DNA of 64,000 nt, from NCBI GenBank assembly GCA_002351925.1, contig DEHM01000019.1, forward strand, positions 14,942 to 78,941, in the 5' to 3' direction. Within the stretch, counting starts at the first letter, position 1. Each line of letters begins with the position of its first letter. The translations under genes were made by a program, and so were the position numbers. Source of the DNA: Bacteroidales bacterium UBA2800. Its GTDB lineage: Bacteria; Bacteroidota; Bacteroidia; Bacteroidales; Paludibacteraceae. Of the stretch, positions 15,527 to 21,564 are shown piece by piece. The notes under the pieces are model-generated. The model saw only the letters and a list, made by a program, of their open reading frames with translations, was not told the DNA's origin and did no database searches.

Positions 15527-15554
15527 TAGACCGCTTCGCTGATAGACGTTAGAC
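15505..15554. repeat. 23-nt duplicated unit containing the reverse complement of TCTTACAGCGAAGCGGTCT; spans the folC start and the folC/dnaE gap
   Basis: agaccgcttcgctgtaagacatt / agaccgcttcgctgatagacgtt / agac. The first copy encodes the folC N-terminus MSYSEAVS. Confidence 0.9.
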
Positions 15555-18500
15555 TTGTTCCTTACTAATCACACTAAAATCGAGGAGGCCTTCGGCGCGG
15601 CGTTGGCTGAGCCATTTGTAGAACGGCGGCGTGACGCGGATGGGTAGGGAACGACTGGTGAGTGCCACCTGTTGCCGGTTGATGGGGTCGTAGATGGTTA
15701 CATGGAGCCGTCCCTGACCTGGGTTGGCGTGTATAGTGTCAGCCAGATCGTCGATGAGTTCGGGCGTGACGGTGTCGAGCGAGAGACGCACCTGGAGTCC
15801 CTCGACGCGTTTGGCCTGCGTCTCGTTGAGCATCTCGACGGCCTGTACGACGAACTCGAACTCCGCCTTGTCGTCTTCGGTCTCGCGGAACCATTTCTGT
15901 CCGGCCCCTTTCTGCTGGACGACTCCGGAGACAAGGACATAGAGGTCCCTGAGCATGAGGTGCCCGAAGCGGCTGTAGGCGTTGCCGAAGAGTGCGAACT
16001 CGTAGCTGCCGGTATAGTCCTCGATGACATATCGGCCGTAGGGGTTGCCCTTCTGGCTGATACGCGATTCGGCCGAGGTGATGAGTCCGCCGATGAGGCA
16101 GGGCTGGTTCTTATGGGCCGCGATGAATTCAGACGGCAGCAGGGGTTTCTGTTCCAGCTCGTCGCCTCCTTCGGCTATCTCGATACGGATGCGTTTCTCG
16201 GCTTCGGCGCGTTCGTCGGGTTTGCGCCAGTGGTCGAAGAGGGAGAGCTCGGCGGCGTTGACGTTACACAACTCGCGTATCTCGAACTCATACTCGTCGA
16301 GCGGGTGGGCAGAGAGATAGATGCCGATGAGGTCTTTTTCGCGGTTGAGTCGTTCGATGGTGTCCCATCGCGGCACGACGGGCAGGTCGGGATGTTTGAT
16401 CTCAATGGCGTCGTTGAGGTCGCCGAAGAGCGAGTTGGCGTTGTTGGCGCGGTCGGCCTGCCATTTCTGGCCGTAGTTCATGAGCAGGTCGAGTCCGCTG
16501 TTGCCGGTTTCGTCCACGCCGAAGAACTGCTCGCGGTAGATATCGCCGAAGCACTCGAAAGCGCCGGCCTGGGCGAGACACTCGATGGTCTTACGGTTGC
16601 AGGACTGGAGGTTGACACGCTCGAGGAAATCGAAGATAGTGCGGTACTTGCCGTTTTTCTCGCGCTCGACGATGATGGCTTCTGCAGCGCCTTCGCCGAC
16701 GCCCTTGATACCTCCGAGACCGAAGCGGATGTCGCCTTTGCTATTAACCGTGAACGATAGCTCCGACTCGTTGACATCGGGCTCGAGCACACTCAGTCCG
16801 AGCGCACGGCACTCGTCCATGAGCTTGGTGACCTCCTTGATATCGTCCTTGTGGACGGTGAGGTTAGCCGCCATGAACTCGGCAGGGTAGTGGGCCTTGA
16901 GATAGCCGGTCTGGTAGGCCACCCACGAATAGCAGGCAGCGTGCGACTTGTTGAAGGCATAGGAGGCGAACTTCTCCCAGTCGGCCCAGATCTTGTTAAG
17001 CACCCGTTCGTCGTGTCCGTTTTTCTTACCGCCCTCCATGAACTTATCCTTGAGCGAGGCGAGGACGGCCATCTGCTTCTTACCCATCGCCTTACGTAGC
17101 TTATCGCTCTCGCCTCGGGTGAAGTCGGCCAGCAGACGACTGAGCAACATGACCTGCTCCTGGTACACCGTGACACCATATGTGTCCTTGAGGTATTTCT
17201 CCATGACGGGAATGTCGTACGTCACGGGCTCGATACCCTGTTTGCGCTTGATGAACTGCGGGATATAGTCCATCGGCCCGGGCCGATAGAGGGCGTTCAT
17301 GGCGATGAGGTCGCCGATGACGGTCGGTTTGAGTTCGCGCAGGTACTTCTGCATACCGGCCGACTCGAACTGGAAGACAGCGACGGTGCGACCTTCTTGG
17401 AAAAGTTTGTAGGTCAGCTCGTCGTCGATAGGGATATGGTCGATGTCGATGTCGATGCCGTGTGCACGCTTGATGTTACGCAGACACTCCTTGATGATGG
17501 TGAGGGTGATGAGGCCGAGGAAGTCCATCTTGATGAGTCCTACGGACTCTACCACGTGGCCGTCGTACTCGGTGACGAGCACCCGTTTCTTGGCGTTCTT
17601 ATCCTCGACGGACGAGAGGGGCGCGAAATTGGTGAGGTCGTCGGCACCGATGATGACGCCGCAGGCGTGTACGCCCACTTGGCGGATAGTGCCCTCAAGA
17701 CGCGCTGCGTACTGCAGCATGGTGCGCGTGTTAAGATCGCCCTGCTCGTACTCGCGCTTGAGTTCGTCGATATACCTATAGCAGTTGTTGAGGTTGACCT
17801 TAGGCGACTTGCCCTTGTCGTCCTTGATGTTGCCGGGGAACTCGCGGTCGGGTATGAGGCTCTTGAGCTCGTTGACACGGGCGAGGGGTATCTGCTGGAC
17901 GCGTCCCACGTCGGCCAGAGCCGACTTGGTAGCCATCTTACCATAGGTAACGATATGAGCCACATGGGTCTCGCCGTACTTACGGCTGACATAGTCGAGC
18001 ACTTTACCGCGTCCGCAATCTTCGAAGTCGGTATCGATATCGGGCAGGGAGATACGGTCGGGATTGAGGAAACGCTCGAACAGGAGGTCGTACTGCAGGG
18101 GGTCGAGGTCGGTGATCTTCAGACAGTAGGCCACCACACTACCGGCCGCCGAGCCACGTCCGGGACCTACCGACACGTCGAGTTCTTCGCGTGCGGCACG
18201 GATGAAATCCATGACGATGAGGAAATAGCCCGGGAAACCCATAGAGATAATGGTGTTGAGCTCGAACTCGATACGCTCTTTGAGCACCTCGTCGGTGTCG
18301 AGTCGCTCTTGTCCGTAGCGCTCCAGTGCACCCTGCATGGTGAGGTGGCGTAGGTAGGCCGACTCGAAGGCGAGACGGTCGGGATAGTCCTCTTCGCGAC
18401 CGAAACTCTCAGGAATGTCGAACTTAGGCATGATAGGTCCGTGGTCGATATCGTAAATCTCCACCTTGTCGACTATCTCCTGAGTGTTCTCCAGCGCCTC

Positions 18501-19355
18501 GGGCAGGTCGCTGAAGATAGCGGCCATCTCGTCGGGCGTCTTGATCCACTCCTGCTTGGTATAGTGCATGCGGTTGACATCGTTGACGTAGTGGTTGGTG
18601 CTGAGGCAGATGAGTCGGTCGTGCGCCTCGGCGTCCTCCTCGTTGACGAAGTGAGCATCGTTGGTAGCGATGAGCTTGATACCATATTTGCGTGCGAGGT
18701 CGATGAGGACCGGGTTGACCTGTTTCTGCCGCTCGTAGACCTCTTGGTCACCGCCGGGTTTCTGCGTCTCGTGGCGCTGCAACTCGATATAGTAGTCGTC
18801 GCCGAAGAGGTTCTTGAACCATTGTACCGTCTCTTCCGCCTCAGTGAAGTCGCCGCCTCTGGCGATACCGTCGAGTATCTTCTGCGGCAGCTCACCACCC
18901 AGACAGGCGGAGCAGCAGATGATACCTTCGTGCCAGCGCTCCAGCAACTCGCGGTCGATACGCGGGGTATGGTAGAACGCGTCGGACATATAGCCGTGGG
19001 AGACGAGTCGGCAGAGGTTGTGGTAGCCGGTGATGTTCTTCGCCAGCAGGATGAGGTGCCAACCGGAGCGGTCGATGGTATAGGTGCGCCCCTCGCCGTT
19101 GACGGCTTTGTCGTCGAGCATAGAGTGGCGTCCGCGGCGGGCACAATAGGCCTCAGTACCGACGATAGGCTTGAATCCCTCTTTCTTCTTGCAGTAGTCG
19201 AGCAGGTCCTTGATGCCGTACATGTTACCATGGTCGGTCAGCGCCACAGCATTCATGCCGGAGGCGATACACTTGTCGACAATCTCGTCTACCTTGGATA
19301 GTCCGTCGAGCAGCGAATAGTGGGAGTGAACATGCAAATGGGTAAAATTCATCAT
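15549..19355 (-). CDS. dnaE: DNA polymerase III alpha subunit
   Basis: 1268 aa. N-terminal PHP domain (FTHLHVHSHYSLLDG), polymerase core, HhH and OB-fold C-terminal region. Confidence 0.95.
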   Translation of the reverse strand: MMNFTHLHVHSHYSLLDGLSKVDEIVDKCIASGMNAVALTDHGNMYGIKDLLDYCKKKEGFKPIVGTEAYCARRGRHSMLDDKAVNGEGRTYTIDRSGWHLILLAKNITGYHNLCRLVSHGYMSDAFYHTPRIDRELLERWHEGIICCSACLGGELPQKILDGIARGGDFTEAEETVQWFKNLFGDDYYIELQRHETQKPGGDQEVYERQKQVNPVLIDLARKYGIKLIATNDAHFVNEEDAEAHDRLICLSTNHYVNDVNRMHYTKQEWIKTPDEMAAIFSDLPEALENTQEIVDKVEIYDIDHGPIMPKFDIPESFGREEDYPDRLAFESAYLRHLTMQGALERYGQERLDTDEVLKERIEFELNTIISMGFPGYFLIVMDFIRAAREELDVSVGPGRGSAAGSVVAYCLKITDLDPLQYDLLFERFLNPDRISLPDIDTDFEDCGRGKVLDYVSRKYGETHVAHIVTYGKMATKSALADVGRVQQIPLARVNELKSLIPDREFPGNIKDDKGKSPKVNLNNCYRYIDELKREYEQGDLNTRTMLQYAARLEGTIRQVGVHACGVIIGADDLTNFAPLSSVEDKNAKKRVLVTEYDGHVVESVGLIKMDFLGLITLTIIKECLRNIKRAHGIDIDIDHIPIDDELTYKLFQEGRTVAVFQFESAGMQKYLRELKPTVIGDLIAMNALYRPGPMDYIPQFIKRKQGIEPVTYDIPVMEKYLKDTYGVTVYQEQVMLLSRLLADFTRGESDKLRKAMGKKQMAVLASLKDKFMEGGKKNGHDERVLNKIWADWEKFASYAFNKSHAACYSWVAYQTGYLKAHYPAEFMAANLTVHKDDIKEVTKLMDECRALGLSVLEPDVNESELSFTVNSKGDIRFGLGGIKGVGEGAAEAIIVEREKNGKYRTIFDFLERVNLQSCNRKTIECLAQAGAFECFGDIYREQFFGVDETGNSGLDLLMNYGQKWQADRANNANSLFGDLNDAIEIKHPDLPVVPRWDTIERLNREKDLIGIYLSAHPLDEYEFEIRELCNVNAAELSLFDHWRKPDERAEAEKRIRIEIAEGGDELEQKPLLPSEFIAAHKNQPCLIGGLITSAESRISQKGNPYGRYVIEDYTGSYEFALFGNAYSRFGHLMLRDLYVLVSGVVQQKGAGQKWFRETEDDKAEFEFVVQAVEMLNETQAKRVEGLQVRLSLDTVTPELIDDLADTIHANPGQGRLHVTIYDPINRQQVALTSRSLPIRVTPPFYKWLSQRRAEGLLDFSVISKEQV

Positions 19356-19375
19356 CGTAATCGTTTAGCGGGTGC

Positions 19376-19406
19376 AAAGGTACTACTTTTTTCGCATGTA
19401 TGCAAA
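19376..19406 (-). promoter_or_regulatory. Promoter for dnaE (TTG-N20-TACCTTTG)
   Basis: The reverse complement reads TTGCATACATGCGAAAAAAGTAGTACCTTTGCACCC. Confidence 0.65.
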
Positions 19407-19433
19407 AAAAAACGCATGTTGGTGCAATTTTTC

Positions 19434-19464
19434 TTGTTTATGTCAAAAAAATGTAGTACTTTTG
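19434..19464 (+). promoter_or_regulatory. Promoter for the kinase-RapZ fusion and MurU-like gene (TTG-N20-TACTTTTG)
   Basis: cTTGTTTATGTCAAAAAAATGTAGTACTTTTGCACG. Confidence 0.68.
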
Positions 19465-19504
19465 CACGCAAAATTGGATGAGGCGAAACACGCCGAATTA
19501 GCTT

Positions 19505-20854
19505 ATGATCAAACAGCAAGGAAGCAACCGTGTCTATACGCGAGAGACGAACGCCGCGGGGCGCAGCGTGATACGCGTGGTAGGCACCAATAGGGACGAG
19601 AACCGTGCGTTCCTCTATATGGCGCGCCATTTCCACGCCTTGGGACTACCCGTGCCGGAGGTGTACAGCGTGAGTGAGGACGAGATGAGTTATACCCAGG
19701 AGGACCTGGGCGACACCCTGCTTTTCAGCCGTCTGGAGCCCACGCTACTGGAGCGTACTATACGCGCGCTGGCACATGTGCAGGTGGAGGGCGCGAAAGA
19801 TTTCGACTGGAGCGTGTGTTTCCCCGTGCCGGCGATGGACGAGCGGTCGATACGCTGGGATCTGAACTACTTCAAATACTGCTTTCTGAAGGGCACGAAG
19901 ATCGAGTTCTCGGAGCCGAAACTGGAGGATGAGTTCGACCGACTGGTGCAGGTCATCCTGGCGCAACCGGCCGACACGTTCCTCTACCGCGACATGCAGA
20001 GTCGCAACGTGATGATCAAAGACGAGCAACCGTATTTCATTGATTTCCAGGGCGGTCGGCGCGGTCCGACGCAGTACGACGTGGCGTCGTTCCTCTGGCA
20101 GGCCAAAGCGAATCTGGCCCCCGCCTTGCGCGAACAGCTGATAGAGGCCTATCTGGACGAACTGCGAAAGCTGCAACCCGAGCTGGACGAAGCCGCTTGG
20201 CGTGCGGCGCTGCCGCATTTCGTATTGTTCCGAACACTGCAGGTGCTGGGGGCGTACGGCTACAGGGGCTATTTCGAGCGGAAACCGCATTTCCTGGAGT
20301 CGATACCGCTGGCGTTGCGTAACCTGCGAGAGGTGCTTGCCGGCCTAAACGACTACCCCTATCTGCGGGAGTTAGCCGAGAGTCTGACAGCCCAAGGCGG
20401 TCCGGCAGTGAAACGGTCTGTCAGCACCAGCGGTCTATCAGCCGCAGGCGGTCTGACCGTCACGGTCTATTCGTTCTCGTTCAAGAAAGGTGTGCCGGCC
20501 GATGAATCTGGTAACGGCGGCGGATATGTGTTCGACTGCCGCAGTACGCACAATCCCGGCAAGTATGAGGAATATAAGACGCTGACGGGTCTGGACCAGC
20601 CGGTTATCGACTTCCTGGAGCAGGACGGCGAGATACGTACGTTCTTGGAGTCGGTGGATAAACTGGTAGACCACCACGTAGAGCGATTCCTGGAGCGCGG
20701 CTTCAGCCATCTGCAGGTGGCTTTCGGCTGCACGGGCGGTCAGCACCGGTCGGTCTATAGCGCCGAACATCTGGCGAAGCGGCTCAGGGAGAAATATGGG
20801 GTGCGGGTGCATCTTATTCACCGAGAAAGGGGGATAGAACGATGGTTGGAATGA
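19505..20854 (+). CDS. Fusion protein: APH-fold sugar kinase (AmgK-like) plus RapZ C-terminal-type domain
   Basis: The N-terminal ~300 aa form a phosphotransferase (APH) fold (QGSNRVYTR, FLYRDMQSRNVMI, FIDFQG). The C-terminal ~135 aa align from memory with the E. coli RapZ C-terminal domain: FSFKKGVP/FGFKHGIP, YVFDCR..HNP/YVFDVRFLPNP, LTGLDQPV/MTGLDKPV, FGCTGGQHRSVY/IGCTGGKHRSVY. An in-frame TAG at 19499 fixes the start. Confidence 0.75.
   Translation: MIKQQGSNRVYTRETNAAGRSVIRVVGTNRDENRAFLYMARHFHALGLPVPEVYSVSEDEMSYTQEDLGDTLLFSRLEPTLLERTIRALAHVQVEGAKDFDWSVCFPVPAMDERSIRWDLNYFKYCFLKGTKIEFSEPKLEDEFDRLVQVILAQPADTFLYRDMQSRNVMIKDEQPYFIDFQGGRRGPTQYDVASFLWQAKANLAPALREQLIEAYLDELRKLQPELDEAAWRAALPHFVLFRTLQVLGAYGYRGYFERKPHFLESIPLALRNLREVLAGLNDYPYLRELAESLTAQGGPAVKRSVSTSGLSAAGGLTVTVYSFSFKKGVPADESGNGGGYVFDCRSTHNPGKYEEYKTLTGLDQPVIDFLEQDGEIRTFLESVDKLVDHHVERFLERGFSHLQVAFGCTGGQHRSVYSAEHLAKRLREKYGVRVHLIHRERGIERWLE
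20414..20468. repeat. CGGTCT-word repeat x4 (periods 17, 18, 14) forming the interdomain linker of the kinase-RapZ fusion
   Basis: CGGTCTgtcagcaccag CGGTCTatcagccgcagg CGGTCTgaccgtca CGGTCT. Confidence 0.85.
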
Positions 20855-21564
20855 TTTTTGCAGCGGGCTTGGGTACGCGTCTGAAACCCCTGACCGATAC
20901 GATGCCGAAGGCCTTGTTGCCGCTGGCCGGCAAACCGCTGCTGCAGTGGCAAGTAGAGCAGTTGCGCGAAGCGGGTGTCAGCGACATCATCGTCAACGTG
21001 CACCATTTTGCCGACATGATCATCGACACCATCCGTGCGAACGACGGCTGGGGCTGCCGTATCGAGGTGTCGGACGAACGCGACGAACTGCTGGAGACCG
21101 GCGGAGGACTCCGAAAAGCGATTACAGGGCAGGGCTTACAGGGCGCGGACGAACCGATACTGGCCTGCAACGTAGATATACTTAGCAATATCCGGATACG
21201 CGAGCTGGTGGATCGCTACGCCCGCAGCGGAGTGAGTCAACTGGTGGTCAGCGAGCGCCAGACGCAGCGTTATCTCTGTTTCGACGCGACAGACCGGCTG
21301 TGCGGCTGGACCAATATCGCCACCGGCGAACTCAAGGGCCACGAAGGCCGGCATCTGGCATTCAGCGGGATGCAGTTACTGAGTCCCGAAGCGCTGCAGC
21401 AGTTGCAGCAGAAGCCGGCGGGTAAGTTCTCCCTGATAGCGTTCTATCTGGACCACATGAACGACCTGCCGCTGCAGGCCTTCGTGCCGACCGACTACCG
21501 GATGATGGACGTCGGCAAGATAGACCAATTGGCCGATGCCGAACGGTTCGCGGAGAGCCTCTGA
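20842..21564 (+). CDS. Sugar-1-phosphate nucleotidyltransferase (MurU-like)
   Basis: AAGLGTRLKPLT nucleotide-binding motif. It overlaps the upstream kinase; ATG 20851 (ATGA overlap) is an alternative start. The kinase plus nucleotidyltransferase pairing resembles AmgK-MurU, but LicA/LicC-type alternatives are not excluded. Confidence 0.7.
   Translation: MVGMIFAAGLGTRLKPLTDTMPKALLPLAGKPLLQWQVEQLREAGVSDIIVNVHHFADMIIDTIRANDGWGCRIEVSDERDELLETGGGLRKAITGQGLQGADEPILACNVDILSNIRIRELVDRYARSGVSQLVVSERQTQRYLCFDATDRLCGWTNIATGELKGHEGRHLAFSGMQLLSPEALQQLQQKPAGKFSLIAFYLDHMNDLPLQAFVPTDYRMMDVGKIDQLADAERFAESL

Follow-up and report, generated by a model that had tools for sequence, protein, structure and literature searches.

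The gene that occupies positions 19505 to 20854 of the window (the whole stretch of 64,000 nucleotides of Bacteroidales bacterium UBA2800 that was analysed) raises the question of why a sugar kinase of the AmgK type should carry at its C-terminal end a domain of the kind known from RapZ, and of what this domain contributes to the salvage of cell-wall sugars. AmgK and MurU form a recycling bypass known from Pseudomonas putida and Pseudomonas aeruginosa, and also from Caulobacter, Legionella and Tannerella forsythia. The two enzymes bypass MurA, the target of fosfomycin, and in Pseudomonas the step that gives MurNAc from MurNAc-6-P is carried out by MupP. To our knowledge, in MurNAc auxotrophs such as T. 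forsythia this pair constitutes the sole route to UDP-MurNAc. RapZ (YhbJ), for its part, is in Escherichia coli both an RNase E adaptor and a sensor of GlcN6P, with homologues in Bacillus subtilis (YvcJ) and Xanthomonas (HpaP). The explanation favoured here, to which we assign a probability of about one half, is that the protein is the AmgK of Bacteroidota provided with a module that dimerises, takes a phosphorylated sugar as its ligand and in this way modulates the salvage of MurNAc.

Architecture of the locus

The locus and its fused protein comprise the following features.

19505 to 20854, plus strand: AmgK-like APH-fold kinase joined to a RapZ C-terminal-type domain, 449 amino acids and a stop codon (open reading frame, Pfam APH and PapZ_C, AlphaFold2)
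19505 to 20404, plus strand: kinase domain, residues 1-300 (APH PF01636, AmgK models best, match to 3csv)
20405 to 20452, plus strand: linker, residues 301-316, disordered and hypervariable (pLDDT, conservation, tandem repeat)
20453 to 20827, plus strand: RapZ C-terminal-type domain (PapZ_C), residues 317-441 (PF22740, match to 5O5S)
20842 to 21564, plus strand: MurU-like sugar-1-phosphate nucleotidyltransferase gene, best NCBIfam model MurU (open reading frame, NF045761, Pfam NTP_transferase)
19356 to 19504, no strand assigned: intergenic region common to the kinase gene and the divergent dnaE, presumably the promoter region of the operon (flanking open reading frames)
15549 to 19355, minus strand: dnaE, divergently transcribed (open reading frame)

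The pairing of an APH kinase with a RapZ C-terminal domain in one protein is confirmed, with scores far beyond chance. The original prediction had assigned residues 1-300, approximately, to an APH-fold kinase and residues 315-449 to the RapZ C-terminal type, and both assignments are borne out: Pfam APH (PF01636) matches residues 6-224 (E 6.8e-17, 62 bits for a cut-off of 23), and PapZ_C (PF22740, 'RapZ C-terminal domain') matches residues 317-441 (E 5.3e-36, 124 bits for a cut-off of 27), so that the RapZ-family match on which the second assignment was staked is indeed there. The NCBIfam model of complete RapZ (NF003828) aligns at its positions 156-277 only (E 3.3e-31; 108.8 bits where 244 are required). 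In agreement with the further proposal that an APH kinase has taken the place of the P-loop domain, the RapZ N-domain (PF03668) is absent from the protein, from its own genome and, above cut-off, from 401 sampled Bacteroidota genomes. The AlphaFold2 model of the full-length protein reaches a pLDDT of 93.6 and a pTM of 0.81.

The overlapping neighbour with a GxGTRL motif that had been described as MurU-like was recovered as well. Its translation (MVGMIFAAGLGTRL...) includes this motif, its residues 3-131 correspond to Pfam NTP_transferase, and its top NCBIfam match is MurU (NF045761, E 1.3e-34, 120 bits, positions 1-224 of 226). The kinase and MurU-like genes overlap by 13 nt, and if the second ATG (20851) is taken as the start of the latter, the overlap becomes an ATGA shared with the stop codon of the kinase at 20852-20854. 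As read from this overlap, the MurU-like gene is translationally coupled to the kinase gene. Scans for sigma-70 promoters and terminators around the operon gave no informative signal.

The kinase and its nucleotidyltransferase partner

The kinase domain displays the elements expected of an active APH-fold enzyme, namely a G-loop-like GSNRVYTR (residues 6-13), the catalytic RDMQSRN (162-168) and IDFQGG (179-184). Among 83-88 family representatives, Q182 never varies and each of R162, D163, Q165, R167, N168, I179, D180 and G183 is kept in at least 90%, the catalytic loop residues D163 and N168 and the metal-binding D180 of the 'DFx' motif being intact. The top PDB matches of this domain are small-molecule kinases of the APH fold, and the closest of them is 3csv, a structural-genomics entry from Silicibacter sp. 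TM1040 described as a putative aminoglycoside phosphotransferase; phmmer finds it with E 9e-11 and Foldseek with E 3e-12 and, across 305 columns, a target-normalised TM of 0.72. Unlike the window protein, 3csv is a single-domain protein of putative function without a RapZ-type domain. The clade to which the window kinase belongs lacks some 25 N-terminal residues that most relatives possess.

The best NCBIfam models for the kinase are the two AmgK equivalogs, NF045759 and NF045698, although its scores lie far under their cut-offs (49.1 bits against 550 and 32.9 against 500). The same holds for the partner, with 120 bits against the 250 demanded by NF045761 and 102 against the 370 demanded by a second MurU model (NF045697). 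Because of these low scores we infer the substrates from family knowledge, according to which the kinase would phosphorylate MurNAc/GlcNAc at C1 and the MurU partner would uridylylate the product. The shortfall of both scores, together with the functional diversity of APH-fold kinases, also leaves room for a pair that uses another substrate, be it a different sugar or choline/ethanolamine with a LicC-like transferase, and that has no part in a MurNAc bypass. The original prediction had named the choline/LicC type as the outcome that would speak against it; the highest-scoring models are those of AmgK and MurU, and the Pfam and NCBIfam matches of the two proteins include neither a choline-kinase nor a LicC model. 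Moreover, unfused kinases of the same phylum score higher on the AmgK model (115-119 bits) and form a bridge to the fused branch. A substrate outside the MurNAc route is thus quite unlikely.

This judgement is reinforced by experiments with T. forsythia, whose AmgK and MurU work on MurNAc and, when placed in E. coli, yield peptidoglycan precursors from MurNAc probes (PMC10941766, PMC13691567). The fused architecture occurs in proteins of Tannerella sp. metagenome-assembled genomes, the enzymes of the experiments being those of T. forsythia. An abundant fused cluster of 476 amino acids had also been considered as Tannerella; this was rejected, the cluster belonging to Parabacteroides. The assignment of the locus to the AmgK-MurU pathway therefore draws on the best-scoring models, the coupling of the two genes, their linkage in related loci (73/80, see below), the unfused pairs, the Tannerella data and the presence of MurA in the window's own genome. 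Like the bypass of other bacteria, the locus consists of an APH-fold kinase with conserved catalytic motifs followed by a translationally coupled small sugar-1-phosphate nucleotidyltransferase, and AmgK and MurU are the best curated models for the two. It differs from the proteobacterial enzymes, which lack the 135-residue RapZ-C-type domain seen here, and from the Pseudomonas-type route in that no AnmK was found in the window's genome.

Fold, conservation and pocket of the RapZ C-terminal-type domain

Two short segments of the domain deserve their own entries.

20507 to 20524, plus strand: subfamily-specific Gly-rich insertion S335-G-N-G-G-G340, before Y341-V-F-D344 and C345-R346
20729 to 20752, plus strand: putative anion-binding loop C409-T-G-G-Q-H-R-S416, of the form CX5R(S/T), equivalent to C247-S254 of RapZ

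Residues 317-440 align with residues 160-277 of E. coli RapZ (phmmer against PDB sequences, E 5e-18), and the four motifs highlighted in the original prediction fall into register: SFSFKKGVP of the window with SFGFKHGIP of RapZ, YVFDCRSTHNP with YVFDVRFLPNP, TGLDQPV with TGLDKPV and GCTGGQHRSVY with GCTGGKHRSVY. When residues 310-449 are modelled with AlphaFold2 (pLDDT 95.4), the result overlays the crystal structure of the RapZ C-terminal domain (5O5S) with a Z of 19.7 in VIA-align and, in Foldseek, with TM scores of 0.81/0.92, an rmsd of 1.9 A and 38% identity; over all comparisons the rmsd is 1.7-1.9 A and the identity 38-40%. This settles in the affirmative the structural comparison that had been suggested.

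Conservation is higher in this domain than in the attached kinase, both in mean top-residue frequency (0.65 against 0.49) and in identity among relatives (60-85% against 51-70%). None of C409, T410, G411, G412, H414, R415 and S416 in the putative anion-binding loop varies among the 88 representatives, nor do C345 and R346; other invariant polar positions of the pocket are N350, R398 and H439. GNGGG constitutes a five-residue insertion with respect to E. coli RapZ, with G338 and G340 present in 88/88 and G339 in 87/88 representatives. The strand Y341-V-F-D344, which corresponds to the Y179-V-F-D182 dimer strand of RapZ, has F/Y in 86/88, V in 68/88, F in 87/88 and D in 87/88 sequences. The C-terminal tail of the domain is variable and often missing among relatives. 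Since the domain exceeds the kinase in conservation and its invariant residues are those of a polar pocket, a ligand site is suggested rather than a plain scaffold.

In RapZ, the pocket has been defined by H190, T248, G249, H252 and R253, with C247 nearby (PMC5737377, PMC9841335); it binds sulphate or malonate, and the C-terminal domain binds GlcN6P (PMC5737377, PMC7073468, PMC9841335). The window domain shares with RapZ the fold, the YVFD dimer strand, the GCTGGxHRSVY loop with its functionally essential Cys and a setting in amino-sugar and cell-wall precursor metabolism. In an alignment whose canonical RapZ reference is that of E. coli only, it retains T248, G249, H252 and R253 and has a conserved K/R327 as the counterpart of K170. 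It departs from RapZ in the APH kinase that stands in the place of the P-loop N-domain, in its ability to stand alone or to join MurU, and in the addition of the GNGG-type insertion and of the invariant Cys345 and Arg398. Furthermore, His190 is replaced by the invariant Gly352 and Trp191 by Arg/Lys, and loop 190-197 is remodelled. These changes in the pocket (H190 to Gly, the GNGGG insertion, the second Cys and the added Arg) make what is known of the RapZ ligand an uncertain guide here and, together with the loss of RNA-binding residues, imply that the ligand need not be GlcN6P.

The same comparison bears on whether the domain has kept the RNA-binding and RNase-adaptor role of RapZ, which would tie MurNAc salvage to post-transcriptional control. 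The fold, the pocket that in RapZ also accommodates a phosphate backbone and the K/R327 counterpart of K170 are compatible with such a role. However, K270, K281, R282 and K283, whose mutation abolishes RNA binding by RapZ, have no conserved basic counterparts (V433, I444, E445 and R446 in the window), H190 and its loop have been remodelled, the N-domain required for the RapZ tetramer is missing, and an Rfam search of the window, intergenic region included, matched no RNA family. From the lack of counterparts to the basic RNA-binding residues and the absence of the RapZ N-domain in the 401 genomes it follows that an RNA adaptor is highly improbable.

The kinase and the RapZ-type domain are connected by a linker whose residues 302-312 have a pLDDT below 50 and whose mean top-residue frequency is 0.08; in the congener G075 the linker is absent and the gene is split. 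In the corresponding DNA, Tandem Repeats Finder reports a 17-nt unit repeated 2.4 times in tandem at 20414-20455, and across the window the word GCGGTCT is found 20 times for 11.8 +/- 3.6 expected, a number reached in 4/100 shuffles. An intergenic repeat of the CGGTCT word was considered as the source of the fusion and rejected: the fusion is common to many families with unrelated linkers, so the repeat accounts for local linker variation only.

Distribution and alternative arrangements

The fusion is present in at least 8000 proteins and in about 55/401 of the sampled Bacteroidota genomes, spread over many families of Bacteroidales. In 73/80 related loci with a MurU-like gene on the same strand, this gene lies at most 150 nt downstream. 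It is important to remark that the fused form is not the only one. In three species of one genus, the domain is encoded between amgK and murU by a separate gene (ctd) with its own ATG; in the congener G075, kinase and domain are overlapping split open reading frames; eight triple fusions of the order APH-PapZ_C-NTP_transferase were found; one protein (P0127), which may be a gene-call artefact, joins PapZ_C to NTP_transferase; and stand-alone PapZ_C forms of 140 amino acids occur. A copy of the domain unlinked to both amgK and murU is found in the genome G257, and a large Bacteroidota family has amgK-murU without any RapZ-type domain. The existence of this last family within the same phylum indicates that the domain is dispensable for the core chemistry. 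The separate, stand-alone and sandwiched forms argue in turn that it takes part in the AmgK-MurU system as a third member in its own right and not as an appendage of the kinase, and on this point the original prediction, which had proposed a sensing or oligomerising module in control of an amino-sugar kinase, has to be revised. Literature searches found no paper on the AmgK-RapZ-C fusion, as had been anticipated for this architecture. The fusion is thus common in Bacteroidota and unstudied, and it is a variant of the known AmgK-MurU system.

Regulators normally act in cis, and the separate or unlinked copies and the MurU-side fusions are no harder to reconcile with an enzyme or scaffold than with a cis regulator. 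A scaffold would be a pure dimerisation piece that joins AmgK to a 'minimal' MurU and channels MurNAc-1-phosphate between them, with neither ligand nor catalysis. The domain stands between kinase and MurU in the order of the genes as well as within the triple fusions, which agrees with this idea, as does the conservation of the strand through which the RapZ C-terminal domain dimerises (PMC5737377), and the pTM of 0.81 of the two-domain model may hint at a defined packing. Nevertheless, it leaves unexplained why the pocket (two Cys, His, three Arg and Gly-rich loops) should be invariant while surface and tail vary, and it has no place for copies unlinked to amgK and murU such as that of G257. 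We consider a mere scaffold unlikely.

A possible enzymatic role for the conserved cysteine

The invariant loop can also be read as an active site, in which case the domain would be a cysteine-dependent enzyme that acts on a sugar phosphate and adds a third catalytic step between AmgK and MurU, for example as a phosphatase or phosphotransferase giving MurNAc from MurNAc-6-P or as a proofreader of anomeric sugar phosphates. This is a real rival, absent from the original prediction, because the RapZ literature itself points to a possible chemical function of the conserved Cys: the C247A and even the C247S variants of RapZ are inactive, and the -SH group may have a specialised catalytic function (PMC9841335). 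In the window family, the CX5R(S/T) pattern formed by C409, R415 and S416 shares its invariance with C345 and H414, and the domain surpasses the kinase in conservation. To be encoded by a gene of its own, to exist as a stand-alone protein and to occupy the middle of triple fusions is, besides, the usual pattern of consecutive pathway enzymes. The RapZ homologues YvcJ and HpaP have been reported as phosphatases (cited in PMC7525490 and PMC9742497), although in the literature found, the passages that mention this activity do not assign it to the C-domain.

The loop lies between strand 402-409 and helix 415-431 of the AlphaFold2 model, and the arrangement C-X5-R-S on a strand-loop-helix recalls, purely as a pattern, the dual-specificity and low-molecular-weight tyrosine phosphatases, the equivalent element of RapZ being a binder of sulphate/phosphate. 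Several dual-specificity phosphatases do appear among the weak structural matches of a wide VIA search, in which DUSP28, DUSP14, DUSP15, DUSP5 and VSP obtain Z scores of 4.7-5.0, but this range is common to unrelated folds and amounts to noise. A Foldseek search with the RapZ-type domain returned RapZ only, with no Cys phosphatase among the matches. No general-acid loop was identified in the window domain, unlike the Cys phosphatases; what exists is a resemblance and not a membership. In addition, the equivalent loop of RapZ binds phosphate groups with no known turnover.

The genomic context bears on the choice of substrate. Neither AnmK nor MurQ was found in the window's genome, which is 83.5% complete, and B. 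thetaiotaomicron, used as a control, has the RapZ-type domain and no AnmK match, so that the obvious source of MurNAc-6-P is missing; a role as MurNAc-6-P phosphatase is weakened accordingly. Taking both sides together, a third catalytic step is a serious rival, in our judgement clearly less probable than the preferred reading. It would be more tentative still to regard the RapZ-C-type domain at large as a small Cys-dependent enzyme and the 'sensing' by RapZ in E. coli as a relic of its ancestral chemistry.

A proposed model for a third component of MurNAc salvage and its implications

The AmgK with a sugar-phosphate-binding module stays the preferred reading. Starting from the observed architecture, fold, conservation pattern, gene linkage and coexistence of split and fused forms, we hypothesise that the RapZ-C-type domain binds a ligand, dimerises and regulates. 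The kinase and the coupled MurU-like uridylyltransferase would convert salvaged MurNAc into MurNAc-1-phosphate and this into UDP-MurNAc, along a route parallel to the de novo pathway that passes through MurA. The 135-residue domain, joined to the kinase by a floppy linker, would be a third, self-sufficient member of the pathway. By analogy with RapZ, where the YVFD strand is essential for the self-interaction of the C-terminal domain (PMC5737377), it would dimerise through its conserved Y/F-V-F-D strand, and the basic pocket on the C-T-G-G-x-H-R-S loop would hold a phosphorylated, strongly anionic ligand. Candidates for the latter are amino-sugar phosphates or nucleotide sugars, for example MurNAc-6-P, MurNAc-1-P, GlcN6P or UDP-MurNAc. 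Ligand binding would then adjust the flux through AmgK and MurU to the pool of precursors, and the domain would have no role as an RNA adaptor.

In the Bacteroidota of the gut and the mouth, the AmgK-MurU route is nearly always accompanied by this conserved and unstudied extra domain, hence the two-enzyme textbook picture of MurNAc salvage is probably incomplete for abundant human-associated bacteria. The locus also offers a natural experiment on the C-domain of RapZ, which here appears fused, split and alone, and freed in all these forms from the RNA-binding and P-loop parts; this freedom should make the ligand or the chemistry of the domain much easier to find. The outcome bears on why Cys247 of RapZ is essential and on the fate of GlcN6P in the pocket, a question that has already been raised (PMC9841335). 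Should the domain turn out to be an enzyme, the MurNAc salvage of Bacteroidota would gain a third catalytic step, for example a sugar-phosphate phosphatase or phosphotransferase supplying or correcting the AmgK-MurU route.

Gene arrangement and domain assignment

The kinase gene and its MurU-like neighbour lie on the same strand and overlap, with dnaE on the opposite strand.

Window 19505..20854, + strand: kinase-RapZ-C ORF, 449 aa
Window 20842..21564, + strand: MurU-like ORF, 240 aa, overlapping the kinase ORF
Upstream of the kinase ORF, opposite strand: dnaE

Two starts are possible for the MurU-like gene, ATG 20842 or ATG 20851; with the latter, start and kinase stop codons share an ATGA. 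At window 19457-19464, 41 nt 5' of the kinase start codon, there is TACTTTTG, which we take to be a putative match to the Bacteroides-type -7 promoter element TAnnTTTG. At the kinase N-terminus (window 19505-19540), about 25-28 residues that most family members have (470-500 aa) are missing from the window protein and those closely related to it (445-460 aa), and no extended ORF is possible upstream of the kinase start in the window.

Pfam assigns residues 6-224 to APH (PF01636) and residues 317-441 to PapZ_C (PF22740, 'RapZ C-terminal domain', E 5.3e-36), thereby fixing the domain limits sketched in the original prediction, and the RapZ model of NCBIfam matches exclusively through its C-terminal positions 156-277. 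In a phmmer search of PDB sequences, residues 160-277 of E. coli RapZ align to residues 317-440 (E 5e-18), an alignment in which all four RapZ motifs noticed at the outset are matched; aligning against E. coli rapZ from NC_000913.3 gave the same mapping. The top NCBIfam model for the 20842..21564 product is MurU, and the top kinase models are two AmgK equivalogs with scores well under their cut-offs; both proteins stay below the curated equivalog thresholds, for AmgK and for MurU. The proposed fusion of kinase and RapZ-C-type domain (C-domain) beside a MurU-like gene is thus fully confirmed by ORFs, Pfam, NCBIfam and phmmer.

Predicted structure and linker

An AlphaFold2 model of the full-length protein, built on an 83-sequence alignment, reached a mean pLDDT of 93.6 and a pTM of 0.81, with disorder limited to residues 1-3 and 302-312 (linker). 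The structure nearest to the kinase part is 3csv (Silicibacter, putative APH-family kinase), followed by other small-molecule APH-fold kinases. Modelled separately (pLDDT 95.4), the C-domain superposes on the RapZ-CTD crystal structure 5O5S (TM 0.81/0.92, rmsd 1.9 A, Z 19.7 when 48,161 representative chains were searched). All other matches, which include P-loop-like designs, phosphofructokinase, polynucleotide kinase and, near Z 5, some dual-specificity phosphatases, stay at Z 6.8 or below, the noise range according to the tool's notes.

The linker is hypervariable and carries a 17-nt tandem repeat (x 2.4) at window 20414-20455. It is absent in G075, a congener of the window's organism, where the kinase ORF overlaps a C-domain ORF read in another frame. 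The motif GCGGTCT shows no clear enrichment in the window (20 observed vs 11.8 +/- 3.6 expected).

Window 20405-20452: linker site
Locus L082, 3390-3445: linker site

The C-domain compared with RapZ

Among 88 representatives of 50%-identity clusters, conservation of the C-domain exceeds that of the kinase (mean top-residue frequency 0.65 vs 0.49; linker, 0.08). Eighteen positions are invariant in 88/88: S323, F324, G338, G340, C345, R346, N350, P351, G352, R398, C409, T410, G411, G412, H414, R415, S416 and H439. The tail beyond H439-R440 is variable or missing.

It has been reported that the RapZ pocket, proposed as the site for the ligand phosphate, holds malonate or sulphate and that residues 179-182 are needed for CTD self-interaction (PMC5737377), and that the CTD alone binds GlcN6P (PMC7073468). 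With E. coli RapZ as reference, the C-domain retains pocket positions T248, G249, H252 and R253 together with the adjacent C247, as well as K170 (K/R327) and the self-association strand YVFD. Other positions differ: an invariant Gly stands in place of H190, Arg/Lys in place of W191, and the positions of V183 and N236 are taken by an invariant Cys and Arg, respectively; a five-residue insertion relative to RapZ forms an S-G-N-G-G-G loop.

In the RapZ-GlmZ complex, RNA backbone phosphates occupy these same pockets (PMC9841335), and joint mutation of K270, K281, R282 and K283 abolishes RNA binding (PMC7073468). These four residues are without conserved counterparts in the C-domain, and a role in RNA binding is less likely for it. 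A RapZ-like N-domain scored above cut-off in 0/401 genomes of the phylum; it was not found in the window's own genome (1.79 Mb, 83.5% complete), which has one PapZ_C, nor in the control genome of B. thetaiotaomicron, which is also PapZ_C positive. Since both the defining N-domain and the RNA-binding residues were tested and are absent, the locus is not a RapZ.

Distribution and gene arrangements

Fusion-type proteins number at least 8000 in a word-indexed search, and PF22740 accompanies PF01636 in 120/120 among the matches listed, where the only name given is 'phosphotransferase'. Named genomes carrying the fused gene come from Paludibacteraceae (to which the window probably belongs), Bacteroides, Phocaeicola, Muribaculaceae, Parabacteroides, Tannerella sp., Prevotellaceae, Dysgonomonadaceae and others; one ESM Atlas cluster suggests that it may also occur in Gemmatimonadota. 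Of 401 genomes sampled evenly across the phylum, 49 contain one full-length match, and another six contain both parts, in split form or joined by a long linker. Automatic annotation already lists the architecture (precomputed Pfam lists, ESM Atlas cluster names), and our literature search turned up neither experiments on the extra domain or fusion nor any conceptual discussion of them.

Kinase and C-domain share one frame in 91/100 related loci, and the MurU-like gene lies at most 150 nt downstream in 73 of the 80 loci having one on the same strand. In three species of one genus, the C-domain (MLHI..., about 135-150 aa) is encoded separately from an ATG of its own, 50-110 nt past the kinase stop and ahead of murU. 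The domain is not present everywhere: amgK is directly followed by murU without it in 86 of 87 sampled genomes of one large family (f24) and in two further genomes, and such kinases score 115-119 bits on the AmgK model, compared with 49 bits for the window's kinase.

L083, L084, L100 (genomes G271, G027, G211): separate C-domain gene
L107-L112 (six genomes of family f24): amgK-murU without C-domain

In genome G257 the C-domain gene is on a different contig from the AmgK-like kinase (L085). There, at L086, the stand-alone gene (1530-1940, -) overlaps the start of an MFS transporter gene (247-1533, -) without NCBIfam assignment, a neighbourhood that may tie the C-domain to sugar or muropeptide import.

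A query with the C-domain only gave 4031 hits among 1.84 billion cluster representatives (251 at E <= 1e-30). The best 150 of the 4031 are mainly kinase fusions of 465-500 aa, together with eight APH-PapZ_C-NTP_transferase triple fusions by Pfam (714-768 aa), one PapZ_C-NTP_transferase protein (387 aa) and stand-alone C-domains of 140 aa. The subfamily signatures recur in the stand-alone and split forms, which are therefore, judged by sequence, members of the AmgK-linked subfamily. Two further architectures, C2185-like_N with PapZ_C (P0128, 346 aa) and 3'-5' exonuclease with APH and PapZ_C (P0134, 718 aa), may be gene-call fusions.

The separate-gene and triple-fusion forms would also fit a C-domain that is itself a cysteine-dependent enzyme, the main rival reading. 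This agrees with hints from RapZ: C247A and C247S are inactive, the authors suggesting a specialised catalytic function for the thiol (PMC9841335), and NTPase and phosphatase activities of the homologues YvcJ and HpaP are cited in passages of PMC7525490 and PMC9742497. Such an enzyme would have no clear source of substrate: neither AnmK, nor MurQ above cut-off, was found in the window's own genome (83.5% complete), and the organism appears to be without an obvious MurNAc-6-P source. We consider this reading rather improbable; the C-domain as a pure scaffold is also less likely.

Implications for MurNAc salvage

T. forsythia AmgK and MurU enable MurNAc probe incorporation in E. coli (PMC10941766, PMC13691567), and nothing was found in our literature search joining AmgK with RapZ, or RapZ with MurNAc in a pathway sense. 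From family knowledge, the AmgK-like and MurU-like pair probably turns MurNAc into UDP-MurNAc; action on another substrate is less likely. Since MurA is present in the window's own genome (C2:49463-50761), the pair would constitute salvage beside de novo synthesis, and the organism appears to have both routes to UDP-MurNAc. As the likeliest mechanism, to which we give a probability of about 0.5, the C-domain would dimerise and be occupied by a strongly anionic, phosphate-carrying ligand, whose binding would adjust the AmgK-MurU pathway. The locus would work like the AmgK-MurU bypass, supplemented by a module that the RapZ family has lent.
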